Source: Bacteroidales bacterium (GTDB lineage Bacteria > Bacteroidota > Bacteroidia > Bacteroidales > UBA7960). Taken from it: a DNA stretch of 62,832 nucleotides. Location: assembly GCA_007118135.1 (NCBI GenBank), contig SKSE01000083.1:1-62832 (forward strand), written 5' to 3'. Numbering within the stretch: position 1 is the first letter of the stretch; the number at the start of each line of letters is the position of its first letter. This document shows, in pieces, positions 23,951 through 44,896 of the stretch. Under the pieces are notes generated by a model that saw nothing but the letters and a program-made list of their open reading frames with translations, was not told the DNA's origin and did no database searches. The position numbers were made by a program, and so were the translations under genes.

Positions 23951-25486
23951 TTACCTGTGTTCTTCCCGTAAAAGATCCATTATAGTTTTTACAGGATTGA
24001 AAGTAATTAAGGGCACTTCCACAAACATTGTGTTCCAATTTGCCATTGCTCCATTCCATAGGCCTGGCAACTCCTGTGCTTTAAGATCTTTACCATCCTT
24101 GCTTTTGTAACTGATAAAGCCGGTTTCAGGGTCAACAAATTCAGTGAGATTGTAGCCCTTTCCGGTATGATCTTTTAAAGAACAAACCAGGTCAACAGGG
24201 TTAAAATGAGTTGACTGCTCAAAAATCTTTTTTTGTTCCTCATCCTTATGGTCAACCTGTGAAGATTCAACAATCTGCAATGAGCGAGTTCCTGATTTGT
24301 GATTCATCACCCAGAAGGGTCCACCGCCGGGCTCACCCACATTTTTTACCATACCACAAATACGTATAGGACGATCAAGAAGTTTTCTCAGCAAAGGGAC
24401 CCCGGTATTATAATCCTGTGGCAGGATTTTCTCATCAATAAATAGGTGCTCGATAGCAAAAGTGCGTGTAACAGCATAGTCATCATCAGCAAAGTTTCCA
24501 CTATCAATTTCACGGAGTATTCTGAATACCTTTTTCTGAAGAAAGAGTAAAAGCCCACCCAGTAATTTTTTGTAGGTATAAGTTTCTTCCTTCAGATGAT
24601 CAGGCACCACATTATCGATATTTTTAATAAACACCAGATCTTCAGTAAGTTCATTAAGATTCTGAATCAGTGCACCATGTCCGCCCGGGCGAAACAGAAG
24701 TGAACCATCGCTATCGCGAAAGGGATTATTTTCCATATCAACAGCCATAGTGTCGGTTGAAGGTTTCTGAACCGAGAATCTTACTTCAAAACTTACTCCG
24801 AATTTTTCTTCATAGTTTTTGATAACGCTTCCTACATGATTGATAAACCGTCCCCTGTGTTCAGGTGAAACAGTAAAATGAAGCTTTACAACACTATTGG
24901 ATTTACGAACATAATTAGCCCCTTCTACAAGATGCTCTTCCAGTGGAGTTCGACTGAAACTTTCATAGTTGTGAAAACGAAGTAAACCTTTGGGAAGCAT
25001 GGCATATCCCAAACCTTCATCATCCAGTAAATAATTGATTAAAGGCAGAAAGTCCTTATTATCATAAAGAGCTTCGGCATTCAAACCTTTCTCCTTTAGT
25101 ATTTGCACCAGATCATCCCAAAAAGCAAAAGATTTCATTTCCCCAAAAAAACGGGCCGCTTGTTGGTCAGAAGCTGCAATATCTTCAGCAGCAGAACCTT
25201 TTCGAAGCATATCGCGCCAGCTAAAAAGATCCTTAAACATACGTGTTGCGGCACCACTTGCAGGAACAAACTTCACAATATCCAGTGCCGGAGAATTTTT
25301 TTCATAAAATTCCACATACTCTTTGAGTTGGTCATTGTCAATCTGAATGATTCCATCACCCAAAGTTGCAGGTGCAGCAAGTTTTACAAAAGGGAACCCC
25401 TTTTCAAAATTCCGGATTTGGTCTTTTGCCATATAAACGGAAATACCTTTCCCCTTTAATTGCTCCAGGTCATTTTCTGTAAACAT
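23951..25486 (-). CDS. DUF4301-like protein (possible nucleotidyltransferase fold)
   Basis: The N-terminus MFTENDLEQLKGKGIS...QIRNFEKGFPFVKLAAPAT and the length (~510 aa) fit the Bacteroidota DUF4301 family as I remember it. No catalytic motif was verified. Confidence 0.5.
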   Translation of the reverse strand: MFTENDLEQLKGKGISVYMAKDQIRNFEKGFPFVKLAAPATLGDGIIQIDNDQLKEYVEFYEKNSPALDIVKFVPASGAATRMFKDLFSWRDMLRKGSAAEDIAASDQQAARFFGEMKSFAFWDDLVQILKEKGLNAEALYDNKDFLPLINYLLDDEGLGYAMLPKGLLRFHNYESFSRTPLEEHLVEGANYVRKSNSVVKLHFTVSPEHRGRFINHVGSVIKNYEEKFGVSFEVRFSVQKPSTDTMAVDMENNPFRDSDGSLLFRPGGHGALIQNLNELTEDLVFIKNIDNVVPDHLKEETYTYKKLLGGLLLFLQKKVFRILREIDSGNFADDDYAVTRTFAIEHLFIDEKILPQDYNTGVPLLRKLLDRPIRICGMVKNVGEPGGGPFWVMNHKSGTRSLQIVESSQVDHKDEEQKKIFEQSTHFNPVDLVCSLKDHTGKGYNLTEFVDPETGFISYKSKDGKDLKAQELPGLWNGAMANWNTMFVEVPLITFNPVKTIMDLLREEHR

Positions 25487-25549: not shown

Positions 25550-25939
25550 TCATGTATTTGCAAGCAGATCTTCATCTCTTACCAACATAAGAATGGATGA
25601 ATGAGGAACGATAAAATATTTTTCGTTATTAAACTCTATTTCGAACGAGCTGTCTTGAAGAAATACAGCCAGGTCTCCCTCCGTAGCCTGTAAAGGGAAG
25701 TATTTCAGGTTATCGCGGGTTTCCTTCCATGGTTCATCGGTTTCCACAGGTGCCGGTATTGGATATCCCGGTCCTGACTTTATAACGTAGCCGCTTTGTA
25801 TTTTTCGTTTTTCCTCAACCCCCGGGGGCAGATACAGCCCTGCCTTGGTTCGCTGTGTTGCGGTTTTGGGCTTTATCAGTACCCTGTCGCCTATGAGAAT
25901 AAATTTCTCAAGATTTTCACCTTCTATCTTCAATAACAT
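25550..25939 (-). CDS. GroES-like (Cpn10 fold) small protein, stand-alone
   Basis: IGDRVLIKPKTATQRTKAGLYLPPGVEEKRKIQSGYVIKSGPG resembles the GroES mobile-loop/beta-barrel start. The start is placed at MLLKIEG (25939). No groEL is nearby. Confidence 0.55.
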   Translation of the reverse strand: MLLKIEGENLEKFILIGDRVLIKPKTATQRTKAGLYLPPGVEEKRKIQSGYVIKSGPGYPIPAPVETDEPWKETRDNLKYFPLQATEGDLAVFLQDSSFEIEFNNEKYFIVPHSSILMLVRDEDLLANT

Positions 25940-26211
25940 AATAAAAATTTTATACCCCAATCAAATCTTCACAAACCTAAGTTTTTTTTATGTAAAAATA
26001 AAATTTTGATTTACGATATATGAAGATTTTAATTGTTATTTCCCAGATGGTATATTATGGGTTTTCTTACAAGGTAATAAGTCGGTTTATTGCCATATTT
26101 TAACGATGAAAATAAAAACAATTGAAAGGGTTTGTACGTTAGGATAGATATAAAATTTATTTTATCTACTTTGTTAAAAATGAATATTTTAAACTTCCAA
26201 AAATATAAGAT

Positions 26212-26925
26212 ATGCAAAAAAGACTTTTATTAATCAGCAACTCAACAAATTACGGGGAAAAGTACCTGGCTTATACCCGGAATTACATTTCTGAGTTTCT
26301 GGGTAAGGATGTCCGCAATATTGCTTTTATACCCTATGCAGCGGTGGATATTTCATACGTAGAATATACCAATCAGGTTAATGATGTTTTTTCTGAACTG
26401 GGATATACAGTAAAATCAACTGAAGACATTCAGGGACCACAAAAAATAATTGAGGATTCAGATGCAATTGTAATTGGCGGTGGTAATACATTTCATCTCA
26501 TTCATTATATGCATGAAAAGGATTTGATTGACATTATTATTAAAAAGGTTGAGAACGGTACCCCTTTCATAGGTTGGAGTGCGGGAAGCAATGTTGCCTG
26601 CCCTACCATAAAAACCACCAACGACATGCCTGTTATTCAACCCAAAAGCTTCGATGCGTTATCGCTGGTTCCTTTCCAGATCAACCCTCATTATACAGAT
26701 AGTCGCATTCCCAATCATAATGGTGAAAGCCGGGAGGAAAGAATACGGGAATTTCTTGAGCTTAACCCCGAAATGACAGTGGTTGGACTTAAAGAGGGTT
26801 CCATACTAAAGATTGAAGGTGAAACAGTTAAACTACTCGGTAATAAAACGATGAAAGTGTTCAGAAAAGAACAACCCACACTCGAATATGACCCCAGCAC
26901 ATCACTGGATTTTATTCTGAAATAA
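26212..26925 (+). CDS. pepE: Dipeptidase E (alpha-aspartyl dipeptidase, peptidase family S51)
   Basis: Collinear with E. coli PepE from memory: LLLISNST, VIGGGNTFHL, IGWSAGSNVACPTIKTTNDMPV, FDALSLVPFQINPHYT, GESREERIREFL. Confidence 0.88.
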   Translation: MQKRLLLISNSTNYGEKYLAYTRNYISEFLGKDVRNIAFIPYAAVDISYVEYTNQVNDVFSELGYTVKSTEDIQGPQKIIEDSDAIVIGGGNTFHLIHYMHEKDLIDIIIKKVENGTPFIGWSAGSNVACPTIKTTNDMPVIQPKSFDALSLVPFQINPHYTDSRIPNHNGESREERIREFLELNPEMTVVGLKEGSILKIEGETVKLLGNKTMKVFRKEQPTLEYDPSTSLDFILK

Positions 26926-27033: not shown

Positions 27034-29778
27034 ATGAATTTTCGTCCGGAAAATTTGCCGGGTCCCGAACCGGTGCCAGGCCCTTTGAAAATCCTGAAAT
27101 TGCAGGCATTACATGGTGCCGGATATTACAGTGCCGGACCTGTAATCATTATGCAACTGGATCTCGGAGAATTTGACGAAGTATTCACGAATACCATCAA
27201 AGGATTTTTTGAAAAACTTAAAGACATACTACCCGGACTTGAAGAACATCACTGCAGCGAAGGTGAAACAGGTGGTTTTTTTTCCAGGTTAAAAGATGGT
27301 ACACTTCTAGGGCATGTTGCCGAACATATCGCCATCGAATTACAAACTATTGCCGGTATAGATGTGAGCTTTGGGAAAACCCGAAGTACAGGTAAAAAGG
27401 GGGTTTACAATGTGGTTTTTCGTTTCCATTCCGAAGAAGCTGGGTTTTATGCAGCCAAAGCCAGTATAGATATTTTGAATAAAATTCTTACAGATCAGGA
27501 TATAAATGTAGAACTCTATATAGGCGATTTGACTCATATCAGGGATAAAACCGCACTCAATCCCGGTACTCTGGCCATAGTAAATGAAGCACACGAAAGA
27601 AATATACCTGTAATCCATCTCGAAAAGTACAATCTTATTCAATTGGGCACAGGAAAATTTCAGAAACGAATCCGGAATACCATTTCCTCCGACACACCTT
27701 TGCTGGCTGTTGAAAATTCAAGAGATGTATTTTTAAACAATCTCATGCTTGCCAATGCAGGAATACCTGTTGCCAGAACCATGAAAACCAGGATTAAAGA
27801 GGAAGCTATTGAATTTTGGAAAAACCTTAATAAACCCGTTACGCTAAAAACATCGGGCAAAAATGGTATTTCCAATTATTTTCCTGCTCTAAACAACCCT
27901 GAAGTTATCAATTCGGCTTTTGTGCTCTGCAAAAATCACAGTGATGAAATCCTGGTGCAGGAGCAAGTCCCTGGCTTAATTTACCGTATCCTGGTAATAG
28001 ATGGGCGGTTTGTGGCTGCAAGCCAGTTGCAACAACCTCAGATTATTGGTAATGGGAAGGACAATATTGCCCGTCTTATAGAAAAACTCAATGAAGAAAA
28101 AAACCGGCAGCCCGATAAAAAAGGAAGTCTTGACGTACTTCAACCAGGAGATGAAATGCTTGAAACACTTTCTTTTTACGGTTTTACACTGGATGATGTG
28201 CCCGAAGATGGAGTTAAGATAGTACTTAGCAACAAGCCAACCATGAAAAGTGGCGTACTTCCTTCGGATGTTACCGGTATTGTACATCCTCTTAATCGCA
28301 CCATTGCTGAACGTGTGGCAGAAATTAGTGGTTTAAAGGTCGCAGGAATAAATATGGTTTGTGCTGATATCAGTAAACCCATTGAAGATACGCAGGGTGC
28401 TGTAATTGGTGTGGATATGGCACCTGACCTACGGATGCATCTTAACCCCTGGAAGGGAAGCAGCAGGGATGTTGCCTTACCTTTTGTAGATATGCTTTTC
28501 CCGGAAAATACTCCATCCAGAATTCCTGTTATTTCTGTAACAGGCTCAGCAGGTAAATCGGTTTGTGCCTATCTGCTGAACTTCATGCTTGAAAGGGAAG
28601 GATATAAAGTCGGACTCTCTCACTCAGATGGAATCTTTATAGACAGCCGACGGATAATAAGAGAGGATATGGCCAATTATCATGCAGCACTATTGATACT
28701 CAAAGACCCTGGCGTGGATTGTGCCGTACTTGAAACATCTGTGGAGAGCATCATCAACAATGGCCTTGGTTATGATTTTGCTGATGTGGGCATAGTACTT
28801 AACATTCATGCCCGGAATTTGAATTATGATTATATCCGAAATACTGATGATTTGGCTTATGCCAAATCTGTTGTGGCCGAAGAAGTATACCGCGATGGTT
28901 ACTCTGTTCTTAATGCCGATGACCCGCTGGTATTGAAAATGTCAGAACGATTACACAGCAAACCGGTTCTTTTTACCCTCAATACTGATAATCCTGATTT
29001 CAGAAAACATTACCTTCTTGGTGGAATGGGAGCTGGCAAGGAAAACAACGAACTTTATCTTTGGACGAGAGGAGGAAAAAACCGTATTGCCCATCTTGAT
29101 GAAGTTCCTCTTTGGGCAAATGGGAAAAATGATATTTTACTCGAATCAATTCTGGCAGCAATATGTACAATGGCAGCATTTGATATACGCCCTGACCGGA
29201 TAAGTCATTTTCTCAAATCATTTAAACCTGCTTCGGCAAGCCTGCATGGAAGACTTATGACTATTTTCCCCGGAGAAAACACAGTTATTATTGATAAACC
29301 TTCCGGACCGGTTGCGCTGGAAAACTTCAGAAAAAAAATACTGGAACAACAAAACATACCTGAGATATATATTGATTTAAGTGGAAACATGCCTGATGAT
29401 TTCTGGAAAAACTTTTCAGACGTTTTTAAAGATGAAAAAGTCATGGTGAATCTTTTCTTTTCTCAAACCGAGATCAATATAAATAAGTATTCAGAAACAA
29501 AAATTAATAATGGCAACAATATCATTACTCCCTTAAAAGAACGTTATAAAAAATCAAATCCCTTGCATCAGGGTATGAGTGAAAAAGAGATATTACAAAA
29601 CCTGGAAAAACAGATTGGGAAAAAGTTTATGAAATGTTTTAAGTTTTTATACTGGCATAATCCTTCTGAATGCATCAAGCAACTTGAGAAGCATGAAAAA
29701 CCGGCAACATTTTTCTTATTTAGCTGGAATTTCAGAAACCTGAATCAACTGATCAACCAAAACCTTATTTTTTTATAA
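27034..29778 (+). CDS. Cyanophycin synthetase (CphA) homologue with a conserved N-domain but divergent ATP-grasp and Mur-ligase motifs and a non-homologous C-terminal tail
   Basis: The N-domain LKILKLQALHGAGYYS...GGFFSRLKDGTLLGHVAEHIAIELQ...GKTRST..GVYNVVF is clearly CphA-like. The ATP-grasp and Mur-like regions are alignable, but their key motifs are substituted (see finding). Confidence 0.7.
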   Translation: MNFRPENLPGPEPVPGPLKILKLQALHGAGYYSAGPVIIMQLDLGEFDEVFTNTIKGFFEKLKDILPGLEEHHCSEGETGGFFSRLKDGTLLGHVAEHIAIELQTIAGIDVSFGKTRSTGKKGVYNVVFRFHSEEAGFYAAKASIDILNKILTDQDINVELYIGDLTHIRDKTALNPGTLAIVNEAHERNIPVIHLEKYNLIQLGTGKFQKRIRNTISSDTPLLAVENSRDVFLNNLMLANAGIPVARTMKTRIKEEAIEFWKNLNKPVTLKTSGKNGISNYFPALNNPEVINSAFVLCKNHSDEILVQEQVPGLIYRILVIDGRFVAASQLQQPQIIGNGKDNIARLIEKLNEEKNRQPDKKGSLDVLQPGDEMLETLSFYGFTLDDVPEDGVKIVLSNKPTMKSGVLPSDVTGIVHPLNRTIAERVAEISGLKVAGINMVCADISKPIEDTQGAVIGVDMAPDLRMHLNPWKGSSRDVALPFVDMLFPENTPSRIPVISVTGSAGKSVCAYLLNFMLEREGYKVGLSHSDGIFIDSRRIIREDMANYHAALLILKDPGVDCAVLETSVESIINNGLGYDFADVGIVLNIHARNLNYDYIRNTDDLAYAKSVVAEEVYRDGYSVLNADDPLVLKMSERLHSKPVLFTLNTDNPDFRKHYLLGGMGAGKENNELYLWTRGGKNRIAHLDEVPLWANGKNDILLESILAAICTMAAFDIRPDRISHFLKSFKPASASLHGRLMTIFPGENTVIIDKPSGPVALENFRKKILEQQNIPEIYIDLSGNMPDDFWKNFSDVFKDEKVMVNLFFSQTEININKYSETKINNGNNIITPLKERYKKSNPLHQGMSEKEILQNLEKQIGKKFMKCFKFLYWHNPSECIKQLEKHEKPATFFLFSWNFRNLNQLINQNLIFL

Positions 29779-29897: not shown

Positions 29898-31073
29898 ATG
29901 AACAAACTGAAAATAATACTGGTAGCCATTGTACTCATTATAATTGGAGTAAGCTGTAAAACCCAACAACCCATAAGGGTGCAGCACATCAGAAATCTTG
30001 AAACAGGACATAACCTTCAGGGTTTTTATTATGCTCTTCCCCGAACAGTTTTAATGATTGATGTAACTGTTGTAAGAACATCTGAAACACCGGGACCTTT
30101 TGCACCCTATGCTTCGAGATTTCTGGGAATTGAAGATGTGATTACCGAACCTTCAACCACTTACGAAATCAGAGAAGTAAATATTAACTCCTACGCAGAG
30201 CCCGACCCATCCGAATTTTACTTTGTAGAACTTGATTTAACCAAAAACCAAAAAAAACCTCTATCATTACACATGAGTGAAGGCGGACTCATTTCGGCAG
30301 TTAATGCTCCTTTCAATCAGGATGAATTTCTGCATAGCACTTCCCTGGACAGAAAATTCGGAGTTTTTGGAAGTGAAGCAACATTTAACCATTTTGTTGA
30401 ATCAAACCTGCACGAAAAGGTAGATACCATTATTCAATACATCCAGGTTGATACTATGACCGTTGAACGGAGAACCTTAAGACGGCGACTGGTGGAAAAA
30501 TCATCGGAAATCAGGGCTAAGGAAGTAGCTGATTACATTCTGAAAATCCGGGATAAAAAGTTTGACCTTATTAGCGGATTTGCTGAAATAACTTACTCAA
30601 AAGAAACTTTACAATACATGAATGACCAGCTTTCCAGGCAAGAGAATGATTATCTGGAATTATTTACCGGTATTACTTCTCAAAGCAAAATTCAATACAG
30701 ATACTTCTTTATTCCTGATAAGAATACAGCCAGCGTACCTCATACACTTTTCTATTTTTCTAAATCGAACGGTATCATGCCGGAAGAAGAACCCGGCAGC
30801 CATGATGTTAATATAGTGGCAACAAGAAGTAATACCACCCGGCAACTGGGTGTCTTTGTTATGGCACCTGACCGAAGAAAAACAGAAACCGGTTTTTATT
30901 ACCGCATACCTGAACATGGTAATATTACCGTTTCAAAAGGTGGAAGCCCCATCGCCGATGCAAGGATGCTTATCACTCAGTATGGAATAATTACCAGTTT
31001 GCCTCCTGCAGATTTGCAAATCGAATTCTATCCCAATACCGGTTTTCTAAAATCGGTTGAAAAAATAAAATAA
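29898..31073 (+). CDS. Hypothetical lipoprotein (possibly DUF4831 family)
   Basis: Lipobox IGVSC. FYYALPRTVLMIDVTVV...PGPFAPYASRFLGI resembles DUF4831 as I recall it; this is weak. Confidence 0.45.
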   Translation: MNKLKIILVAIVLIIIGVSCKTQQPIRVQHIRNLETGHNLQGFYYALPRTVLMIDVTVVRTSETPGPFAPYASRFLGIEDVITEPSTTYEIREVNINSYAEPDPSEFYFVELDLTKNQKKPLSLHMSEGGLISAVNAPFNQDEFLHSTSLDRKFGVFGSEATFNHFVESNLHEKVDTIIQYIQVDTMTVERRTLRRRLVEKSSEIRAKEVADYILKIRDKKFDLISGFAEITYSKETLQYMNDQLSRQENDYLELFTGITSQSKIQYRYFFIPDKNTASVPHTLFYFSKSNGIMPEEEPGSHDVNIVATRSNTTRQLGVFVMAPDRRKTETGFYYRIPEHGNITVSKGGSPIADARMLITQYGIITSLPPADLQIEFYPNTGFLKSVEKIK

Positions 31074-31872: not shown

Positions 31873-33444
31873 ATGGATAAAATTGACCTTCAGGAATTTG
31901 AAAGTAAGCTTAAAGTAAGAAACCTTCAGATTGAAGATTTTGATGCACTAATACGTATGCAAAAAATATGTTTTCCATCCATGCAAACATGGAGCAGAGA
32001 AAACATTGAAAACCAGTTACGTATTTTTCCCGACGGGCAGATTGTTATAGAAATTGACGGCATGCTGGTAGCATCATCATCCAGCCTTATTATTGACTCT
32101 GAAGATCTTGATCTGGATAAAAGCTGGGATGAAATTTGTGATTTCGGCAATATCGGAACCCATGATCCTGAAGGTGATACCCTTTACGGAATGGAAATTA
32201 TGGTTCATCCTGACTACAGGGGTATGAAACTGGCCACAAGACTTTATGAATCGCGCAAGGAGCTGACAAGGGAGCGTAATCTCATGCGTATTGTAATCGG
32301 TGGCCGGCTTCCGGGGTACAGAAATTATAAAGACAAACTCAGCATTAACCAATATGTAGACCGGGTAACAAGTAAAGCCATTTTTGATCCGGTGCTTACA
32401 CCCCAGTTAAGCAATGGTTTTTCATTGAAAAAGGTAATCAGGGAGTATTTGGATGAAGATAAGGAATCTGGTGGGTTTGCCACCTATCTGGAGTGGGCTA
32501 ACTTCGACTACCACCAGGAAAAAGACAGGAAATATCTTGCTTCACTGCCAACGCGTATTTGTGTTGTGCAATACCAAATGCGACCCATACGAAGTTTTGA
32601 TGATTTTGCAGTACATTGCGAATATTTTGTTGATGTGGCTTCCGGTTATAAAAGTGATTTTGTTATTTTTCCTGAAATCTTCACCTTACAATTGCTATCA
32701 CTCTTTCCCAAAGAAAATCCGGGTACTGCTGCACGAAAAATCGGAGAATTTACAGAGCAATACCTGGAGTTATTCAGTGACCTCTCCATAAAATATAATA
32801 TAAATATAATTGCGGGGTCACACTTTACACCTGAAAACGACAAGCTTTATAATATTGCTTACCTCTTCAAGCGTAATGGCGAAATAGGCAAACAATACAA
32901 ACTGCACATTACACCCAATGAAAAAAAATGGTGGGGAGTTGAACCGGGCCGGAATATCGAAGTTTTCGACACCGATAAAGGTAAAATTGCCATTCAGATT
33001 TGCTACGATATAGAATTTCCGGAGGTTGCACGTATAGCAGTTGAGAGAGGTGCCAGAATCATCTTTGTACCTTTCTGCACCGATGATCGCCAGGGTTACC
33101 TAAGAGTAAGATACTGTGCTCAGGCACGCTGTATTGAAAACCAAATATTTGTGGCTATCGCCGGTACGGTGGGAAACCTGCCACATGTTGACAATATGGA
33201 TATCCAGTACGCTCAGTCAGGAGTTTTCACCCCATCTGATTTCTCCTTTGCCCGCGATGCCATTGCTGCAGAATGTACACCCAATGTTGAGACTGTAATC
33301 ATCAATGATATAGACCTTGAACTGTTAAAACGACATCGCAACCGAGGAACCGTTACCAATTGGAACGACCGTCGTACAGACATATATCGAATTCAGGCCC
33401 TCGACCACGATATTGATCGACACGAACCACAGAATCCATACTAA
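31873..33444 (+). CDS. Bifunctional GNAT N-acetyltransferase / carbon-nitrogen hydrolase (nitrilase superfamily) protein
   Basis: The N-terminal GNAT core is MEIMVHPDYRGMKLATRLYE. The C-terminal CN-hydrolase has FPE..., YKLHITP and the catalytic-Cys motif IAIQICYDIEFPE. Confidence 0.8.
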   Translation: MDKIDLQEFESKLKVRNLQIEDFDALIRMQKICFPSMQTWSRENIENQLRIFPDGQIVIEIDGMLVASSSSLIIDSEDLDLDKSWDEICDFGNIGTHDPEGDTLYGMEIMVHPDYRGMKLATRLYESRKELTRERNLMRIVIGGRLPGYRNYKDKLSINQYVDRVTSKAIFDPVLTPQLSNGFSLKKVIREYLDEDKESGGFATYLEWANFDYHQEKDRKYLASLPTRICVVQYQMRPIRSFDDFAVHCEYFVDVASGYKSDFVIFPEIFTLQLLSLFPKENPGTAARKIGEFTEQYLELFSDLSIKYNINIIAGSHFTPENDKLYNIAYLFKRNGEIGKQYKLHITPNEKKWWGVEPGRNIEVFDTDKGKIAIQICYDIEFPEVARIAVERGARIIFVPFCTDDRQGYLRVRYCAQARCIENQIFVAIAGTVGNLPHVDNMDIQYAQSGVFTPSDFSFARDAIAAECTPNVETVIINDIDLELLKRHRNRGTVTNWNDRRTDIYRIQALDHDIDRHEPQNPY

Positions 33445-37649: not shown

Positions 37650-40600
37650 TCAGAACCATCTTACAAGTTTAAGATCCTGACGATGCGCAAGCAATTCATT
37701 CTTAGGAAACATGCGGAAGGCATAATTATAAATACCAACTCGTTTGGTAGTAACTTCACATTTGTAAGTAACCTTTCCGTTTTCACGTTTCATTTGATCC
37801 ATCTCATATACAGAGATAATAGATTCTTCACCTTCAAAATCTTTCTGAATAAAAACAACTTCAACACCAAAATCTGATTCGTTTAGCTCATTTAAATCCA
37901 GTACAATTTCTGCAACGAACTTATCGCCAAGCAAAAGAGACTTATCTGCAGTATTCATAAGGTTGAGAGATACCAGTTCAATGCTTTCCCATCCACGGTT
38001 GATGTTTGATTTCCAATGCGCCAGTTCTCTTGAACGATCGCATGCATCTGAAAGCATAACATCAGACCGTTTAAATAACTTATTATAGAAAAATTTGAAA
38101 TAGTCATCCATCATGCGTTTATTGGTAAAATGGGGTGCAATTCTGGCAATATTATTTTTCACCCATCTAATCCATTCAACAGGTACGCCATTTTTATTTC
38201 TGTCATAAAACATGGGGATAATCTCATTTTCGAAGGTATTATACACAACCTCAGCATCCAATTCATCCTGGTAGCCTTGATTATCGTAAGTTTTCTCCTC
38301 TTTAATGGCCCAACCGGCCTCAGGTGTATAACCTTCTGCCCACCATCCGTCGAGAACACTGAAATTCATAACACCATTAAGTACGGCTTTCTGACCTGAT
38401 GTTCCGGATGCTTCAAGGGGACGTGTGGGTGTATTCAACCAAATATCAACACCCTTAACCAATGCTTCACCCAGCTCCATATCATAATCTTCAAGGAAAA
38501 TGATTTTTCCTCTAAACTCTTTCATTTTTGAAACTTCAATGATATGCTTAATCAAATCCTGACCGGCTTTATCGGCAGGGTGAGCTTTGCCTGCATAAAG
38601 AAATTGCACAGGCATATCGGGATTATTAACGATTCGCGATAGTTTTTCGAGATCATTAAATAGCAGGCGGGCACGCTTGTAAGTTGCAAAACGACGGGCA
38701 AAACCTATAGTAAGAGTTTTATCATCAAGAGCATCAAGTACCTGGTAAACTTTTTTGGGTGTTTCCTGACGTCGTGAAAGGTTTGACAAAAGACGTTTTT
38801 TGATATACTCCATCAATTTGCGTCTTTGTACCTGCCTCATTTCCCAGATTTTTTCATCGGGAATATCATAGATCTTTTCCCAATGATTGGGATCAGAAAC
38901 ATCATTAAAAAATTCATTTCCAAAAGTATCTGCATAAAGTTTCTGCCACTCCGGAGCACACCATGTACCATAATGAACTCCGTTTGTTACATGGCCAATA
39001 TGAATTTCATCAGCGAAGTATCCCGGATAGAGATCTTTAAACATTTCGCGTGATACACCACCATGAATCTTACTTACACCATTAACTTCAGATGCAAGTT
39101 TGGTGGCAAGTACGCTCATAGAGTATCTTTCATCAGGGTTATCAGGACGTATTTTACCCAGCGACATGAATGTTTCCCATGCAATACCAAGTCGGTCAGC
39201 ATAATGTGGCATATAAGTTCTGAGCATATCTTCACTGAAAAAATCATGACCTGCTGGAACTGGTGTGTGAGTAGTAAATAAACTGCTTGATCTCACGGCT
39301 TCTAAAGCTTCAGGAAAACTGAGTTTTTCGTCCTGTACAAACTTTCTGAGCCTTTCAAGGCCTGCAAATGCTGCATGTCCTTCATTAAGATGATAAACTT
39401 TAGGTTTTATGTTCAAAGCATCAAGCAAACGGATACCACCTATACCCAGCAAAAACTCCTGTTTAAAACGGTTTTCCCAGTCACCGCCATAAAGCTGGTG
39501 AGTTACTACCTTATCAATAGAAGCATTTTCAGGAATATCTGTATCGAGCAAATAAAGAGGAATACGACCAATGTCAATTTTCCATACCTTGGCATAAATA
39601 TTACGCCCCGGAAAAGCGATGCTGATTTTTACCCATTCGCCCATTTCATTCCGAACAGGCTGTGCTGACATATAGGTAAAGTTATGCGACGTATAATTTG
39701 CCATTTGCTCTCCACTTATGGAAAGATTCTGGCTGAAGTAACCGTATCGGTACAATAAGCCAATGCCAATCATATCGATATTATCATCACTTGCCTGTTT
39801 TAAAAAGTCACCTGCCAGAACTCCCAATCCACCGGAGTAAATTTTTACAGAAGTATGTAAACCATACTCCATACTAAAGTAAGCAATAGTATCAGAAGTT
39901 TTTTTCTCAGCTTTCTGCATGTATTCATCAAATTTCTTCACTACACGCTCATACTCCTGCATAAATTCCTTGTCGGCAATCAATTTCTGATAATGCTCGA
40001 CTGTTAGGTTATCCAGCAAGCGAGGTGGGCTTTTTTCAACCCTCTCCCACAAGTCGGGGTCAATGCGTTCAAATAGTAAAGCAGCATCGTAATTCCATGT
40101 CCACCAAAGATTTTTGGCAAGCTTCTGAAGATCTTCCAGTTCTTTGGGAATGTTGATTTCAATAAGAATCTTCTTCCATTTAGGCTTGGATACTTTTGCT
40201 TTATATAAATCCTGGGGTTTTACTGGCTGTTTTTTTGCTTTAAAGAGGTCAGCCCTTTGTTCCACTTTTTTCATAGCATGATCATATGCTATAAAATAAT
40301 TTTCAGCCAATGTATCCCAGAGTGCTGATTTGTAAATCTGGTGTGCCCGTTCACGCAAAGAAATCATGTTTTTATGCACAAGTGCATTGAAACCATTATC
40401 TTCAGCTGTAAGCTGACCAAACTCATCATCATTTATAAGTGAAAGAATGATATCCGAGATATTTTCCGACACCTGTTGTGAATTATTGTCGTTTCTTTCT
40501 AATACTGCCACACTGCGATAATCATCAGGGAAATTATCTCTTGCCCAAATTCCGAATCCTGCAAGTGACGTGGTAACAGTGGGCACATAAAATGCAAGGC

Positions 40601-41939
40601 TTTCATGTGGTGTATAACCCCATGGCTCGTAATATGATGGAAACACACTCAAATCCATTCCAATGAGTGCATCATAATAATTGAGATTAAGCGCGCCATC
40701 ATCACCATTCAGATAAGACGGCAGAAATATCAACTTCACTTTATCGTCAGGACTGTTATTTAATCCTGAATTGCTCAGATGCTTCAGGACCGGATCGGAA
40801 TCGGGATCAACCAATTTGTGGGTTGTATATTCTCCTGTTAAGGGTTTTTTAAAATCCGGGTTTTTAATTCGGTCAACTACTTCGGGCTTTACACCGGTTT
40901 GATTTCCCGGAACCATAATAAAAGCAACAACAGTAGCTTTAAGGTCTTTTTTATTAATCCTGGAAAGTGCATCAAGAAATACATCAACACCCTTATTCTT
41001 AAACTCATACCTTCCGCTGTTTATAAGCAGAAGGCTGTTCTCAGGTATCTCCTGGTTAAGCATTCCTGATGCAAGCTTAAGAAGTTGTTCTCTTGATTTT
41101 TTTCGTCTTACAACAAATTCCTTTTCATCAGGAACAAAAGAATCGCTAAAGCCATTTGGAGCAATAACATCAACTTCTTTATTCAATAGCTTATGACATT
41201 CTTTTGCTGCTGTCTTACTTACAGTAATAAAAGCATCAGCAGTAGCTGAAGCTGTTTTTTCCATGCTATGCTTTGAAACTACACCTAACTCGCTGGCGCG
41301 TGAATCTGTATCCAGTTGTCCCATTTCAGTATAAAGCTGGAAACCGTTAGCAGCGATAGACCGGCCCAGGGATGTTGCATGAGTTGTAAAGATTGTACCT
41401 GCCTGAGGCACCCTGTCTTTCAGATATAATACACCTGAACCTGTCATCCACTCATGGAAATTTGCAAGAATAGAATCTTTGGATGAAAGATGGTAATTGT
41501 AAAAACTTTCGATTACCTGGCCAGCCGCATAACCGAACATGGTGGGCTCGGTATAATCCCATTGGCCACTAAGTGAGTTTAATCCGAACTTATTCCAGAA
41601 ATCGGTGAATATATTATCTTTTTCGGAAAAAAGCGGTGTAAAATCAACCAGAATTGCTATGGGGGAGCCGGGAATATTCCAGCGACCTAATCTAAAATGT
41701 AAACCATCTTTGGTAGCCTGTTTGCGCCATGATCTGTAAAGATACCTGTCCTCTATAAATTCAGGGTTCCCATGAGTTTCTTTCCATACATCAGGACCAA
41801 TACACATGTAATTGTCATTCATTTCATTAACCATCGACAATGCCTTGGTACCTATTACAGTATGAATTCCACCAATTTTATTACAAACTTCCCAGCTTAC
41901 TTCAAATAAAAAATCAGGTTTTTTAATATTTTCAGTCAT
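37650..41939 (-). CDS. Fusion protein: GT3 eukaryote-type glycogen synthase (N-terminal ~570 aa) + GT35 alpha-glucan phosphorylase (C-terminal ~850 aa)
   Basis: The N-terminus FEVSWEVCNKIGGIHTVIGTKA is the GT3 signature. After a Lys-rich linker come LAKNLWWTWNYDAALLFERIDPDLWE (alpha-glucan phosphorylase N-terminal), YFSMEYG, GGLGVLAGD and EASGTSGQKAVLNG (PLP-Lys motif). Confidence 0.85.
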   Translation of the reverse strand: MTENIKKPDFLFEVSWEVCNKIGGIHTVIGTKALSMVNEMNDNYMCIGPDVWKETHGNPEFIEDRYLYRSWRKQATKDGLHFRLGRWNIPGSPIAILVDFTPLFSEKDNIFTDFWNKFGLNSLSGQWDYTEPTMFGYAAGQVIESFYNYHLSSKDSILANFHEWMTGSGVLYLKDRVPQAGTIFTTHATSLGRSIAANGFQLYTEMGQLDTDSRASELGVVSKHSMEKTASATADAFITVSKTAAKECHKLLNKEVDVIAPNGFSDSFVPDEKEFVVRRKKSREQLLKLASGMLNQEIPENSLLLINSGRYEFKNKGVDVFLDALSRINKKDLKATVVAFIMVPGNQTGVKPEVVDRIKNPDFKKPLTGEYTTHKLVDPDSDPVLKHLSNSGLNNSPDDKVKLIFLPSYLNGDDGALNLNYYDALIGMDLSVFPSYYEPWGYTPHESLAFYVPTVTTSLAGFGIWARDNFPDDYRSVAVLERNDNNSQQVSENISDIILSLINDDEFGQLTAEDNGFNALVHKNMISLRERAHQIYKSALWDTLAENYFIAYDHAMKKVEQRADLFKAKKQPVKPQDLYKAKVSKPKWKKILIEINIPKELEDLQKLAKNLWWTWNYDAALLFERIDPDLWERVEKSPPRLLDNLTVEHYQKLIADKEFMQEYERVVKKFDEYMQKAEKKTSDTIAYFSMEYGLHTSVKIYSGGLGVLAGDFLKQASDDNIDMIGIGLLYRYGYFSQNLSISGEQMANYTSHNFTYMSAQPVRNEMGEWVKISIAFPGRNIYAKVWKIDIGRIPLYLLDTDIPENASIDKVVTHQLYGGDWENRFKQEFLLGIGGIRLLDALNIKPKVYHLNEGHAAFAGLERLRKFVQDEKLSFPEALEAVRSSSLFTTHTPVPAGHDFFSEDMLRTYMPHYADRLGIAWETFMSLGKIRPDNPDERYSMSVLATKLASEVNGVSKIHGGVSREMFKDLYPGYFADEIHIGHVTNGVHYGTWCAPEWQKLYADTFGNEFFNDVSDPNHWEKIYDIPDEKIWEMRQVQRRKLMEYIKKRLLSNLSRRQETPKKVYQVLDALDDKTLTIGFARRFATYKRARLLFNDLEKLSRIVNNPDMPVQFLYAGKAHPADKAGQDLIKHIIEVSKMKEFRGKIIFLEDYDMELGEALVKGVDIWLNTPTRPLEASGTSGQKAVLNGVMNFSVLDGWWAEGYTPEAGWAIKEEKTYDNQGYQDELDAEVVYNTFENEIIPMFYDRNKNGVPVEWIRWVKNNIARIAPHFTNKRMMDDYFKFFYNKLFKRSDVMLSDACDRSRELAHWKSNINRGWESIELVSLNLMNTADKSLLLGDKFVAEIVLDLNELNESDFGVEVVFIQKDFEGEESIISVYEMDQMKRENGKVTYKCEVTTKRVGIYNYAFRMFPKNELLAHRQDLKLVRWF

Positions 41940-42025
41940 ATTTCAATTTTTAAATATTTATCCTTTTATTTCCAAAAAACGAACGAAATTACGAAAAATT
42001 CCACAATTGAATTCATCAAAAACCA

Positions 42026-42041
42026 ACGCTAACGTTTGCGT
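42026..42041. promoter_or_regulatory. Imperfect 16-bp palindrome acgcTAACGTTTgcgt, candidate operator upstream of the GT3-GT35 gene
   Basis: It is symmetric around aacgtt with one mismatched pair and lies ~90-100 nt upstream of the ATG at 41939. Confidence 0.25.
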
Positions 42042-42084
42042 AGTTATTAATTAACAATAAATTTTTGCAAATTTCTTTTTCTGC

Positions 42085-42122
42085 AAAAAAAATCCTGTGT
42101 GATAAATTTACACAGGATTTTT
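42085..42122 (-). terminator. Intrinsic terminator after the GH57 gene
   Basis: aatcctgtgt (42091-42100) pairs with acacaggatt (42110-42119). It is flanked by an A-run and a T-run, so there is a T-run on the minus strand. Confidence 0.75.
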
Positions 42123-42161
42123 CGCTCAATAATTTACCGGTTAAACAAAAAGATCAAAGTT

Positions 42162-43481
42162 TTATTTTTTTGAAGTTCCGCCGGTTTTTTTTCTGGTAAC
42201 AGGCTTTTTAGTAGTCTTAACTGGTTTTTCATCAACTTTCTTGGTTGCCCTTTTTCGGGCCGGTGCTTTTGAAGCTTCTTCTTTCACTTTACCTGCGCAG
42301 GCTTTCTTAACCCTTATCTCAAAATCGGCCAGCACATTCATATAGTTTATAAAGGCATCATATGGCGAATTGTAAGGATTGTAATTTCTGCGAACAGTGC
42401 CATCAGAAAACCATTTGGTTGACATGTAATAAAAATGATCACTCACCTGCAATTTTTGCCAGTGATCAAGTATACCTTCATCTTCGCAAGAGTTCACAGA
42501 TTCTTCCAGTTCATAAAGTTTATTGAAAGCTTCATTCTGCATTTCGTTGCCTAGCCAGGCTGTTATATCTCTCTCCTCATCCGCCCATGAAATAGGATAC
42601 GGAATGTGCAATGGAGATGCAGGTTGCAATGCTGCAGCCACTTCAGATGGGGTATTAAACTGAAATCTTGATTTATCAAATACGATTTGTGGAAATGTTT
42701 TCAGGAAGTCAAAAATACCTGTTTCCTTTTTCTGATTTTCACCAAAGGTTTCATAATCCATAAAAAGATTCACAACTTCTGTTTTTGGGCCCAGGGCATT
42801 GAGCCATCCTGTAAACTTTTCAGATGTAAGTGGCCATTCACTCCAGTTTCTTACTGAAAAACGGAAGGCAATATCATCAGACAACTGGAAGTTTTTCATC
42901 AGTAGTTTCACCTTAGGATTGGTAGCACTGCAGTAAAGTAAGTTGGGGCTTTTCCAACCCAGAACGTGCTTAGGACCTTCTGTTATTACTGTACTATAAC
43001 CAAGTTCAAAAATAAGATTACCAATGTCATCATTGTAGATGAGCTCAGTATTGCGGAAGGTTTTGGGTTTAACTCCAAACAGGGATTTGATTTTAGCCTC
43101 ATGAAGCTTCACCTGCCTGAAAAATTCAGTTTTACTTTTCAGTGAAGCCAGGCTATGATTATTTGTTTCGGTAAGAAACTCCACATTGCCCGTTGCAGCA
43201 AGTTTTTTAAAACTATCAATGACTTCAGGTGTAAACCTTTCCATTTGCTCAAGAGCAATTCCCGAGATGCTAAAGCTCACCTTGAATTTCTTGCCAAATT
43301 TCTTAATCTGACTGAGAAGAATTTCATTGGCAGGCAGATAGCTGTTTTCTGCAAGTTGCTGCATGATAAACCTGTTGGCATATTCATCAAAATAGTCATG
43401 CTTATAACCGATATCGAAAAAACGATAATTTCTTAACCTGAAAGGCTGATGAATCTGAAAGTAAAAACAAATTGACTTCAT
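42162..43481 (-). CDS. Glycoside hydrolase family 57 protein (alpha-amylase/branching-type) with a Lys-rich C-terminal tail
   Basis: MKSICFYFQIHQPFRLRNYRFFDIG and SFSISG...LE are GH57 N-terminal motifs. The last ~45 aa are Lys/Thr/Pro-rich. Confidence 0.8.
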   Translation of the reverse strand: MKSICFYFQIHQPFRLRNYRFFDIGYKHDYFDEYANRFIMQQLAENSYLPANEILLSQIKKFGKKFKVSFSISGIALEQMERFTPEVIDSFKKLAATGNVEFLTETNNHSLASLKSKTEFFRQVKLHEAKIKSLFGVKPKTFRNTELIYNDDIGNLIFELGYSTVITEGPKHVLGWKSPNLLYCSATNPKVKLLMKNFQLSDDIAFRFSVRNWSEWPLTSEKFTGWLNALGPKTEVVNLFMDYETFGENQKKETGIFDFLKTFPQIVFDKSRFQFNTPSEVAAALQPASPLHIPYPISWADEERDITAWLGNEMQNEAFNKLYELEESVNSCEDEGILDHWQKLQVSDHFYYMSTKWFSDGTVRRNYNPYNSPYDAFINYMNVLADFEIRVKKACAGKVKEEASKAPARKRATKKVDEKPVKTTKKPVTRKKTGGTSKK

Positions 43482-43567
43482 ATTTCTTTCTTGTTAGGCC
43501 CACAGAATCAGCAGGCAGATTTTTTATATTTTCTTTTTTATTGTAACCGGTTTAAATAAAATAAGTT

Positions 43568-44851
43568 TCAGGTGAGAAACTCCTGATAAATTTCTTTTAC
43601 TTTCTCACCAGCCTGATCCCATTTAATATTATCAACTTCTTCCTTTCCGTGTTTCTTGAAAGTTTCGGGGAGCGCATTGTAATGCAGCAGACCATAAATA
43701 GCATCTGCCATGGCGTCAATATCCCAGAAATCAACTTTGATGGCATGTTTGAGCACTTCAGCCACACCTGATTGTTTGGAAATAATAACCGGAACATTTG
43801 ACCGCATGGCTTCCAGAGGCGAAATACCAAAGGGCTCCGAAACAGATGGCATAACATAAACATCACTCATGCCAAACATCTTATCCACATCGTCTCCTTT
43901 AAGGAATCCTGTAAAATGAAACTTGTTGGAAATTCCGAGCTTGGCCACGCGCCTTATCATTTTATTGAGCATATCGCCACTGCCTGCCATAACAAAACGA
44001 ACATTATCGTCGCGTTGCAGAACCTTATGTGCGGCCTCAATAAAATATTCGGGGCCTTTTTGGAAAGTAATTCGACCCAGGAAGGTTACGATTTTTTCAT
44101 CAAGATGCCTTTTTACCTCCAGATCTTTTTCTGTTTCCGGGGGTTCTACGCCATTATGCACGGTTACCACTTTATCGGGATGAATCCCATACCGGTTGAT
44201 AACAACACTCCTCGTCATATGACTTACGGCGATAACTTTATCGGCAGCTTCCATACCGGCACGTTCAATATCATACACCTGCTGGTTTACACTTTCTCCG
44301 GAGCGGTCAAATTCAGTGGCATGCATATGCACTACCAATGGTTTACCGGTAATTCTTTTGGCTTCTTTACCAGCCATGTAAGTAAGCCAGTCGTGAGAGT
44401 GAATAAGGTCAAAGTCATACTGACGAGCAATGGTAAGAGCTACCATTGCATACCGGTTTACTTCTTCCAGCAGATTTTTACCATAGCCTCCGGCAAACTC
44501 ATACTTTCTGGAGTGGATGCTACCTTTTTCGGCAGTTACACCTTGTTGTGTTTTTTCTATGATCTTAAAATATTCTTCTTCAGTAGCATAAGGTACCAAT
44601 TGCGAATCAACTTCCACATACGACATTTTATCAAGGTACTCCCTGAATACTTCGTCCTGGATATCTATGGCCACTTCACTGGCATTCACCAGGCGAATGC
44701 TGCCGGGTTTTTCATCGCCATAAGCTTTGGGTACAACAAATATCAAATCGACTCCGCATTTCAGCAACGCCTTGGTTAAACCATAACTGGCCGTTCCAAG
44801 TCCCCCTGAGATATGCGGAGGAAATTCCCATCCAAACATTAAAACTTTCAT
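43568..44851 (-). CDS. Glycosyltransferase family 4 (glycogen-synthase-like, GT-B)
   Basis: MKVLMFGWEFPPHISGGLGTASYGL, HSHDWLT, and a C-terminal E..G...LEAM motif (PSVSEPFGISPLEAM). Confidence 0.8.
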   Translation of the reverse strand: MKVLMFGWEFPPHISGGLGTASYGLTKALLKCGVDLIFVVPKAYGDEKPGSIRLVNASEVAIDIQDEVFREYLDKMSYVEVDSQLVPYATEEEYFKIIEKTQQGVTAEKGSIHSRKYEFAGGYGKNLLEEVNRYAMVALTIARQYDFDLIHSHDWLTYMAGKEAKRITGKPLVVHMHATEFDRSGESVNQQVYDIERAGMEAADKVIAVSHMTRSVVINRYGIHPDKVVTVHNGVEPPETEKDLEVKRHLDEKIVTFLGRITFQKGPEYFIEAAHKVLQRDDNVRFVMAGSGDMLNKMIRRVAKLGISNKFHFTGFLKGDDVDKMFGMSDVYVMPSVSEPFGISPLEAMRSNVPVIISKQSGVAEVLKHAIKVDFWDIDAMADAIYGLLHYNALPETFKKHGKEEVDNIKWDQAGEKVKEIYQEFLT

Positions 44852-44896
44852 TTCCTCTAATACTTATAAATTATTCGCTTAAATTAATTCCTTTAT

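Follow-up and report, generated by a model that had tools for sequence, protein, structure and literature searches.

In this study, we followed up a cyanophycin synthetase-like gene at positions 27034..29778 (+) of a 62.8-kb window, that is, the whole stretch of DNA analysed (62,832 nucleotides, contig SKSE01000083.1 of a Bacteroidales bacterium), and relate its three predicted active sites to those of characterised cyanophycin synthetases. Residue scoring showed that its product would not be a cyanophycin synthetase: the ATP-grasp step appears impossible, and residues required in the Mur-ligase domain are absent. Judged from alignments and from conservation among its orthologues, the protein has probably been converted to binding or cutting, and its gene should not be taken as evidence that these bacteria synthesise cyanophycin. 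The fuller reading that we favour, in which a selectively maintained pseudo-synthetase derived from CphA1 binds cyanophycin-type chains and, in most clade members, cleaves them without polymerisation, we hold to be about evenly poised between right and wrong. A first-pass annotation, made from the sequence, had proposed a protein that kept the N-domain HxxEH motif while losing synthetase catalysis, either as a pseudo-synthetase or as a repurposed enzyme, and this core idea is supported both by residue scoring and by the signs of purifying selection described below.

Domain architecture and the three active sites

The open reading frame (ORF) is uninterrupted and encodes 914 amino acids. When searched with phmmer against PDB sequences, residues 18-761 aligned to residues 1-752 of 7LG5, the CphA1 of Synechocystis UTEX2470 (SuCphA1; E=2e-136), and matches to CphA2 (E=2e-40 over 175-587) and to GshF ATP-grasp modules were much weaker. 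A Pfam scan of the protein matched only the Cyanophycin_syn N-domain (PF18921, 4e-44) and Mur_ligase_M (2e-11), finding neither ATP-grasp nor Mur_ligase_C. Against the NCBIfam model TIGR02068 it scored 716 bits, under the 850-bit equivalog cutoff, which a control from the neighbouring clade (P0024) passed with 946. An AlphaFold model built from a mixed alignment (predicted local distance difference test, pLDDT, 87.8; predicted template modelling score, pTM, 0.86) superposed on 7WAE_A, a Trichodesmium CphA1, with template modelling scores of 0.83/0.87 over 910 columns; superposition on full-length TeCphA1 and SuCphA1 chains spans ~910 columns and takes in Mlid. Alignment and predicted structure together show the three-domain fold of CphA1, with its N, ATP-grasp (G) and Mur-ligase (M) domains, to be retained. 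No signal peptide was found in the sequence of the protein, which is therefore presumably cytoplasmic.

Residues were scored in an alignment of SuCphA1 with the 120 best homologues, which we split into a clade of close orthologues (P0001-P0021), a "long" CphA1-like group of 48 and a ~730-aa group of 51. Clade counts below refer to these 21 full-length members; a truncated relative, P0022, makes 22. Sites carry SuCphA1 numbers, with query numbers given separately (C74, for example, corresponds to C59), and the HMMER and MAFFT registers agree at every key site.

The N domain (residues 18-175; 27085..27558, +) is the best conserved of the protein, with 55% identity to canonical CphA1. A primer-generating Cx19HxxEH site occurs in 83% of CphA1s. 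In CphA1, the N domain carries a Zn-dependent endo-cyanophycinase site that uses C59, H79, E82 and H83, supported by H57, F67, R70 and E87; the polymer is contacted by S60 and Y110 and, from the M core, by S603 and E607 (PMC9262961). Published inactivating mutants are E82Q for the N site, H267A for G and D585A/H586A for M; the E82Q protein still binds polymer tightly, and the N domain is active in trans in vitro (PMC9262961). The query carries the complete motif (C74...H94-V-A-E97-H98; 27253..27327, +) together with H72, F82, R85, E102 and Y125. The first-pass annotation had placed GHVAEHIAIELQ in this domain, with HVAEH at 27313-27327, and both are as it described; its tentative suggestion that a cryptic metallopeptidase-like site in the N domain might use these residues also proved sound, C59/H79/E82/H83 being exactly C74/H94/E97/H98 here (PMC9262961). 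Throughout the clade, C59, H79, H83, H57, F67, E87, Y110 and S60 are invariant (21/21), E82 and R70 are present in 20/21, and the groove residues contributed by the M core are kept in 18/21 (S603) and 20/21 (E607). Site and polymer groove are complete in 20 of the 21 members. E82 is Gly in P0021 and in the truncated P0022, both of which occupy the same syntenic slot as the other clade genes.

The G domain (residues 176-490; 27559..28503, +) is confidently modelled as an ATP-grasp fold that superposes on CphA1, with a degenerate catalytic site. In CphA1, K220 and K261 touch phosphates and residues 263-269 form P-loopG, with R309 stabilising the intermediate and Mg2+ held by D431 and E450 (PMC9427784). 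From the full CphA1 set of K220, K261, P-loopG glycines, R309, D431, E450 and N452, the query keeps K261 and R309, and it also keeps E215. K220 has become Val (27727-27729, +), the P-loopG glycines G265 and G268 are Lys and Ile (27859-27870, +), and what is left of the Mg2+ site is a remnant (D431N at N440, E450G at G459 and N452D at D461; 28351..28416, +). The losses are shared: E450 and N452 are found in 0/21 clade members, K220 in 2/21 and D431 in 5/21, G265 and G268 are gone and G399 is Ala or Val, with R309 kept in 21/21. At these lost positions, conservation exceeds 90% in the long CphA1-like group, and likewise across the 99 neighbouring CphAs. Since the replacement residues vary between clade members, constraint appears to have been lost at these positions, as opposed to a new catalytic set having been gained. 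The comparison shows a G domain that would be catalytically dead across the clade, because loss of the ATP-grasp Mg2+ and phosphate ligands should make extension of the poly-Asp backbone impossible.

The first-pass list of eroded G-domain motifs needs revision. Its change of VEVNAAPG to IGVDMAPD is real in both alignments (E450G, N452D), and in IKPLDGNHGRG, changed to LKTSGKNGISN, the losses of G265 and G268 are informative; that of H267 is not diagnostic, the residue being Leu in 33 of 48 near-canonical CphA1s. The change of GRDHRVLVV to GLIYRILVI had been read as erosion, which we reject: R309 is invariant in the clade, and the nearest normal-looking Bacteroidales CphA1s read GKSYRLLII. ANLSTGG does differ, and it aligns to PTMKSGV, one residue away from the proposed KPTMKSG; other motif coordinates were correct to within about 3 nt. 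Two key losses, K220V and D431N, had been overlooked. The suggestion that the protein might make a different polymer seems unlikely, given that the ATP-grasp Mg site is gone and that its replacements vary between members.

The M-domain core (residues 491-745; 28504..29268, +) presents a different picture. K499, T500, T522 and E558 of CphA1 bind ATP and Mg2+, while in the lid R731 touches the alpha-phosphate and H748 the gamma-phosphate; deletion of the lid substantially lowers activity, and the lid is dispensable for ATP binding (PMC9427784). This ATP/Mg-binding set is intact in the query, with the P-loop GSAGKSV (28543..28563, +; K508 = K499, S509 = T500) accompanied by S531 (T522), E567 (E558) and R740 (R731). 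G-S-A-G-K is invariant in the clade, as are E558, N581 and R731 (each 21/21), T500 is Ser, and T522 is Ser in 20/21. The catalytic residues are lost (R561V, G563S, D585R, H586N and G588N; 28741..28824, +), so that at the lost M and lid positions the query reads V570, R594/N595 and S757/G758, with GNM replacing GDR. Clade-wide, R561 is Val or similar, G563 is Ser and G588 is lost; H748, N749 and the GDR Arg of the C-lobe are absent from all 21 members, D585 survives in one and H586 in 12, and seven have Gln at K602. Of the catalytic and lid features of CphA1 (R561, D585/H586, H748/N749, GDR and DxRGR), the query has none.

Mur-superfamily ligases, as known from MurD and MurE, share an invariant P-loop Lys, an Mg-binding Glu, the His of DH, the Asn/His of DxAHN and the Arg of GDR. 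Here the Lys and Glu are present, the second-metal His is absent, PSG takes the place of AHN and GNM that of GDR, which is not the pattern of a competent Mur ligase. The first-pass view that the M motifs were eroded was half right: GTNGKTT to GSAGKSV (a P-loop kept in altered form), ARGG to SVES (R561V, G563S), NVAADHLG to NIHARNLN (D585R, H586N) and DYAHNP to DKPSGP (H748S, N749G) are all genuine in both alignments, and catalytic and lid residues are indeed lost, but the GSAGKS, E558 and R731 core is strictly conserved. It had allowed that the ATP-grasp Lys, Glu and Asn and the Mur-ligase residues might turn out to be conserved; K261 and the M-domain ATP/Mg core are, while K220, E450, N452 and the M catalytic residues are not.

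The C-terminal lobe (Mlid, residues 746-914; 29269..29775, +) is recognised by its position and predicted fold. Where CphA1 has DYAHN the query reads DKPSG, and DAAGDR is represented by DLSGNMP in the query and by DLSGN(I/L/M)P across the clade. That this region is an Asn/Lys-rich tail without similarity to CphA holds at the sequence level: its Asn/Lys content is 24.5%, against 12.5% elsewhere in the protein, no likeness to the canonical C-lobe was detected by hhalign (probability 1.2%, E=0.04), and a phmmer search of 1.84 billion representatives returned only clade members and one spurious repeat protein. That the tail replaces the C-lobe does not hold, as a folded domain stands in the C-lobe position. 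MAFFT pairs IDLSGNMPDDF with LDAAGDRxDEE and LFSWNF with ILSxxP, and the mixed-alignment model folds the tail as beta-alpha-beta repeats, with a single disordered loop (pLDDT <50 at residues 814-829). With a clade-only alignment, from which the tail region alone was used because the model was globally poor (pLDDT 61), the same tail elements returned at pLDDT ~75-91 and CphA1 chains, lid included, again ranked first. An Asn/Lys-rich insertion or variable loop (residues ~809-849; 29458..29580, +) replaces the canonical YEGxDxRGR, its columns varying within the clade, and the clade-specific invariant residues listed for the remodelled lid are H738, P756, N785, P787, F808, S810, W898 and N899. We conclude from the predicted fold that the C-lobe has been remodelled, not replaced; as sequence cannot connect the two, the link between tail and Mlid rests on position and predicted fold.

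Sites of lost constraint are unevenly distributed over these domains. Twenty-five positions are fixed in canonical CphAs and variable in the clade, 12 of them in G, 10 in the C-lobe, two in N and one in the M core. With so few in N and the M core, which jointly form the N-site polymer groove, residue conservation shows a Zn site and groove that appear to remain under ancestral constraint.

Clade, selection and order of loss

In a neighbour-joining tree, the clade and P0022 are monophyletic (22/22). The first-pass question of whether this is a distinct Bacteroidota lineage can thus be answered with a group of ~22 proteins from uncultured Bacteroidales metagenome-assembled genomes (MAGs). Its stem of 0.19 lies above the 95th percentile of internal branches, and the root-to-tip distance is 1.42 compared with 1.07 for the long CphA1s, equivalent to about 30% faster evolution. 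The clade proteins, of 905-916 aa, share 46-100% identity from end to end, the tail included, and the gene occurs in about 13 species-representative genomes, all of them uncultured Bacteroidales or Bacteroidota MAGs; the isolate names of several suggest sediment samples.

Ratios of nonsynonymous to synonymous substitution (dN/dS), calculated by the Nei-Gojobori method against orthologues of 82% and 77% identity, were ~0.09 for N, 0.11-0.12 for G, 0.05-0.065 for the M core, which is the most constrained region within the clade, and 0.09-0.16 for the tail; dS of 0.7-2.4 is near saturation, which makes these values, with an overall range of ~0.05-0.17, approximate. Mean identity within the clade (N 0.64, G 0.59, M core 0.63, tail 0.39) is comparable to that among the long CphA1s (N 0.66, G 0.54, M core 0.54, tail 0.41). 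Loss of essential residues under continued purifying selection, with ORFs intact down to 46% identity, is the pattern of a pseudoenzyme, and on these sequence comparisons the gene belongs to a maintained clade and is not decaying.

Two relatives bear on the order of events. The clade's sister, P0023 (910 aa), shares S496, A497, R561V and P747, lacks H748/N749 and GDR, and has an aberrant tail; in its G domain K220, E450 and N452 are still present, with K261T and D431T already changed. In this state, the M lid had evidently been remodelled before the Mg ligands of the G site were lost. P0022 (736 aa), a very long branch within the clade, has its whole C-lobe deleted and carries E82G, E215G and D431T. 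It is a syntenic orthologue (L009 4663-6873; L010 2760-4970) with an intact ORF on five contigs. At L010, the S51 gene beside it is called at only 182 aa.

Proposed function and competing explanations

We infer a protein that would no longer polymerise anything. Chains of (beta-Asp-Arg)n would be bound in the groove between N and the M core and, in the query and most members, cut endolytically at what in CphA1 is the "cryptic third active site", here C74/H94/E97/H98; the remodelled lid and the dead G domain would be left as scaffold, and nucleotides bound at the M core might modulate the protein. Given the lineages with E82G, what all members share may be polymer binding, with cleavage optional. 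The first-pass idea that cleaving might be the only function kept fails clade-wide for the same substitutions in P0021 and P0022.

Several points weigh against this interpretation. E82 is the general base, and its replacement by Gly in two lineages means that hydrolysis cannot be what selection maintains throughout the clade. All canonical CphAs likewise conserve the N-site residues, which may be partly structural, and a pure hydrolase model does not account for the strict conservation of the M-domain P-loop. The CphA-like gene is the fastest-evolving of its neighbourhood, with 46-51% identity in the deepest comparisons versus 54-90% for its neighbours. Neither the window nor the 10 kb around the gene at any clade locus holds a cyanophycinase, isoaspartyl dipeptidase (IadA/IaaA-type), transporter or second cphA, which leaves the model without an evident source of substrate. 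For every clade member, moreover, the favoured function is read from sequence and predicted structure.

Some of the same observations would suit a wholly non-catalytic pseudoenzyme, a polymer-, protein- or ATP-binding scaffold or sensor whose N-site metal is structural only and whose ligands might be cyanophycin-like or poly-anionic/cationic peptides, which we consider possible if somewhat unlikely. Both lineages with E82 changed to Gly still keep the ORF, tight polymer binding by the E82Q mutant (PMC9262961) shows what such a protein could do, and an invariant M-domain P-loop without the catalytic His/Asp in the query suggests binding, not turnover. Structural pseudoenzymes derived from Mur ligases do exist: plastid RNA-polymerase MurE-like chains (8R6S_Q, 9EPC_Q), in which the Mur fold serves as a non-ligase module, are among the fold matches of the M region. 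Being eukaryotic and without N or G domains, they offer an analogy of fate and not specific homology; PAP11 is non-catalytic. What speaks against pure binding is that 20 of the 21 members keep the catalytic tetrad together with H57, F67 and E87 despite their fast evolution, where more frequent drift at E82 would be expected.

A trans-acting partner of an active CphA paralogue encoded elsewhere, providing a primer-generating N domain or forming hetero-oligomers, is improbable in our view. The N domain does function in trans in vitro (PMC9262961), related bacteria often have several CphA paralogues at one locus (L007/8, L021, L023-25, L030, L056 and others), and a ~730-aa Bacteroidales class with active G and dead M exists. 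Set against this are the absence of a second cphA from the window and from within 10 kb in ~13 clade loci and, more weakly, the finding that no clade MAG occurs twice among 78 CphA loci from species genomes, as the search patterns were clade-tuned and would mostly miss canonical CphAs.

If the M core is so highly constrained, with GSAGKS, E558, N581 and R731 invariant, the protein might be a neofunctionalised ATP-dependent ligase whose M domain joins a different amine to a different carboxylate. The clade-invariant residues of the lid and the remodelling of M before loss of the G site in the sister P0023 fit such a scheme, which is nevertheless quite improbable: superfamily residues are missing (H586 is kept in 12/21 and not in the query, and H748, N749 and the GDR Arg in none), K602 is Gln in a third of members, and the orthologue P0022 dispenses with the entire lid.

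A still-working cyanophycin synthetase using non-canonical residues, with the motif changes as lineage variation, is very unlikely: H267 to Leu and DH to SY do also occur in near-canonical Bacteroidales CphA1s, and JGI labels clade members cyanophycin synthetase, but both Mg2+ acids, the ExN Asn, K220 and the P-loop glycines are lost with differing replacements at positions well conserved in the 99 neighbouring CphAs, the TIGR02068 score falls under the cutoff, and no cyanophycinase is adjacent, compared with all 86 CphA1-encoding Bacteroidota genomes having one (PMC10206079). Equally hard to credit is a decaying, functionless remnant, for which the rank of fastest-evolving neighbourhood gene, a long stem with an accelerated rate and stepwise feature loss in P0021 and P0022 might be cited, against intact ORFs of ~905-916 codons in all full-length members, dN/dS of ~0.1 in every domain and within-clade conservation comparable to that of active CphA1s.

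Genomic neighbourhood, relatives and wider meaning

All clade loci share one gene order, in which DUF4301 and Cpn10-like genes are divergent from a series of S51, CphA-like, DUF4831, SDR, (GNAT/CN_hydrolase) and DoxX genes. Directly upstream of the CphA-like gene in every clade locus is a PepE-type S51 Asp-X dipeptidase (237 aa; 26212..26925, +). The NCBIfam PepE equivalog model matched it with 312 bits (cutoff 156) and the cyanophycinase model with 22 bits (cutoff 126.6), ruling it out as a cyanophycinase. A PepE-like gene of 58% identity (L005 9216-9929) also stands directly upstream of the canonical CphA1 P0024, at a locus that additionally holds a 310-aa cyanophycinase-type S51, and others (L037 9122-9835, L041 8605-9330) precede ~730-aa CphAs. 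The arrangement thus recurs with three different CphA classes in Bacteroidales. Among 42 metagenomic PepE-like loci with enough flank, 40 have no CphA, and the only two with one are clade loci; functional coupling of PepE and CphA is accordingly a weak link, and the adjacency may be one ancestral arrangement. It is distinctly unlikely that the protein is a stand-alone, possibly ATP-gated cytoplasmic endo-cyanophycinase that works through the cryptic N site alone and forms, with the PepE-type S51 enzyme, a pathway for using cyanophycin or beta-Asp-Arg oligomers without a classical cyanophycinase. If true, a biosynthetic polymerase would have been converted to a degradative enzyme, and the isoaspartyl dipeptidase for cyanophycin, still undiscovered in Bacteroidota (PMC10206079), could be explained. 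Most canonical loci have a nearby cyanophycinase, and in the survey of 86 Bacteroidota genomes the recognisable cyanophycinase is usually clustered with cphA1 (PMC10206079).

Downstream in all clade loci is a gene for a DUF4831 protein (Pfam; 29898..31073, +) with a lipoprotein-like N-terminus, MNKLKIILVAIVLIIIGVSC; it is absent from the canonical CphA1 locus L005, and we found no evidence of a functional link. No such link is evident either for the two divergent neighbours syntenic in all clade loci, the DUF4301 protein (23951-25486, -; E=1.5e-214 to Pfam) and the Cpn10-like protein (25550-25960, -). By a wide margin, the most conserved gene of the neighbourhood is a GNAT-CN_hydrolase fusion (523 aa; 31873-33444), with 85-96% identity where the CphA-like gene has 46-82%. 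About 8 kb downstream of the CphA-like gene lies a glycogen-metabolism cluster (37650-46840). It comprises a 1429-aa ORF, the syntenic orthologues of which unite Pfam domains of glycogen synthase and phosphorylase, and then genes for GH57, a GT4/GT5 starch-synthase-like protein and a debranching enzyme. That this storage-polymer locus is so close to a dead synthetase of another storage polymer is probably chance synteny. In promoter and terminator scans, which used a sigma-70 consensus unsuited to Bacteroidota, counts did not exceed chance.

The wider alignment also contains ~50 proteins of ~720-745 aa (P0048-P0120; L007/L008, L022-L041) from Bacteroidales, Cloacimonadota and other phyla, in which the N site and the ATP-grasp site are intact, the M domain is degenerate and the C-lobe is missing. 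R561 is usually Val and H586 usually Tyr or Gly, and K499 is lost in 8/51. The architecture recalls that of CphA2, here outside cyanobacteria, except that the HxxEH motif of the CphA1 type is present. Several of these loci encode a separate ~650-aa ATP-grasp_5 protein resembling CphA residues ~178-600, with a cyanophycinase nearby. Many loci outside the clade (L021, L056, L062, L068, L069, L075 and L080) hold CphA-like genes or gene fragments in twos or threes, arranged in tandem or back to back, which suggests that CphAs beyond the cyanobacteria commonly occur as sets of paralogues or in split form.

Compared with known systems, the query resembles CphA1 (Synechocystis UTEX2470 7LG5/7TXV; Trichodesmium 7WAE) in its N-G-M fold, its Cx19HxxEH site with groove and its M-core ATP/Mg ligands. 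Unlike CphA1, it is without the G-domain Mg2+/ATP ligands, R561, D585, H586, H748, N749 and the GDR Arg, has an unrecognisable C-lobe sequence with an inserted loop, scores low against TIGR02068 and has no cyanophycinase nearby. CphA2 (7TA5, 8FXH) provides a precedent within the family for inactive scaffold domains, having a truncated inactive M and a non-catalytic N domain (PMC10273328). Its pattern is the inverse of the present one: CphA2 relies on G alone and has no N motif, whereas in the query G is dead, the N motif intact and M full length. The primer-dependent CphA1 of Tatumella morbirosei (7LGN) has lost its N site and kept G and M (PMC9262961), while the clade has kept N and lost G and largely M. 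The CphA homologues of Ralstonia eutropha H16 (cited in PMC11362209), compared by description only, are beta-proteobacterial paralogues. The literature covered by our searches describes CphA1, CphA2 and CphA1s without an N site; in it we found no description of a G-dead CphA lineage, a pseudo-CphA or a PepE-cyanophycin link.

For annotation, the consequences are practical. JGI/IMG names five clade members (P0002, P0006, P0012, P0020 and P0021) "cyanophycin synthetase", which on residue evidence is probably an over-annotation and would lead metabolic reconstructions of these Bacteroidales MAGs to infer cyanophycin nitrogen storage wrongly. NCBI names the orthologues "hypothetical protein" or "Mur ligase family protein", its cutoff correctly withholding the synthetase name.

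For the family, the clade, CphA2 and Tatumella CphA1 taken together indicate that CphA can lose any one of its three active sites independently of the others, with P0023 as an intermediate step. As the N-domain endo-cyanophycinase would be the only complete catalytic site here, the clade offers a natural experiment on a possible physiological role of that site beyond primer generation, and an invariant ATP-binding P-loop in a domain without catalytic residues points to possible nucleotide-regulated binding or cleavage.

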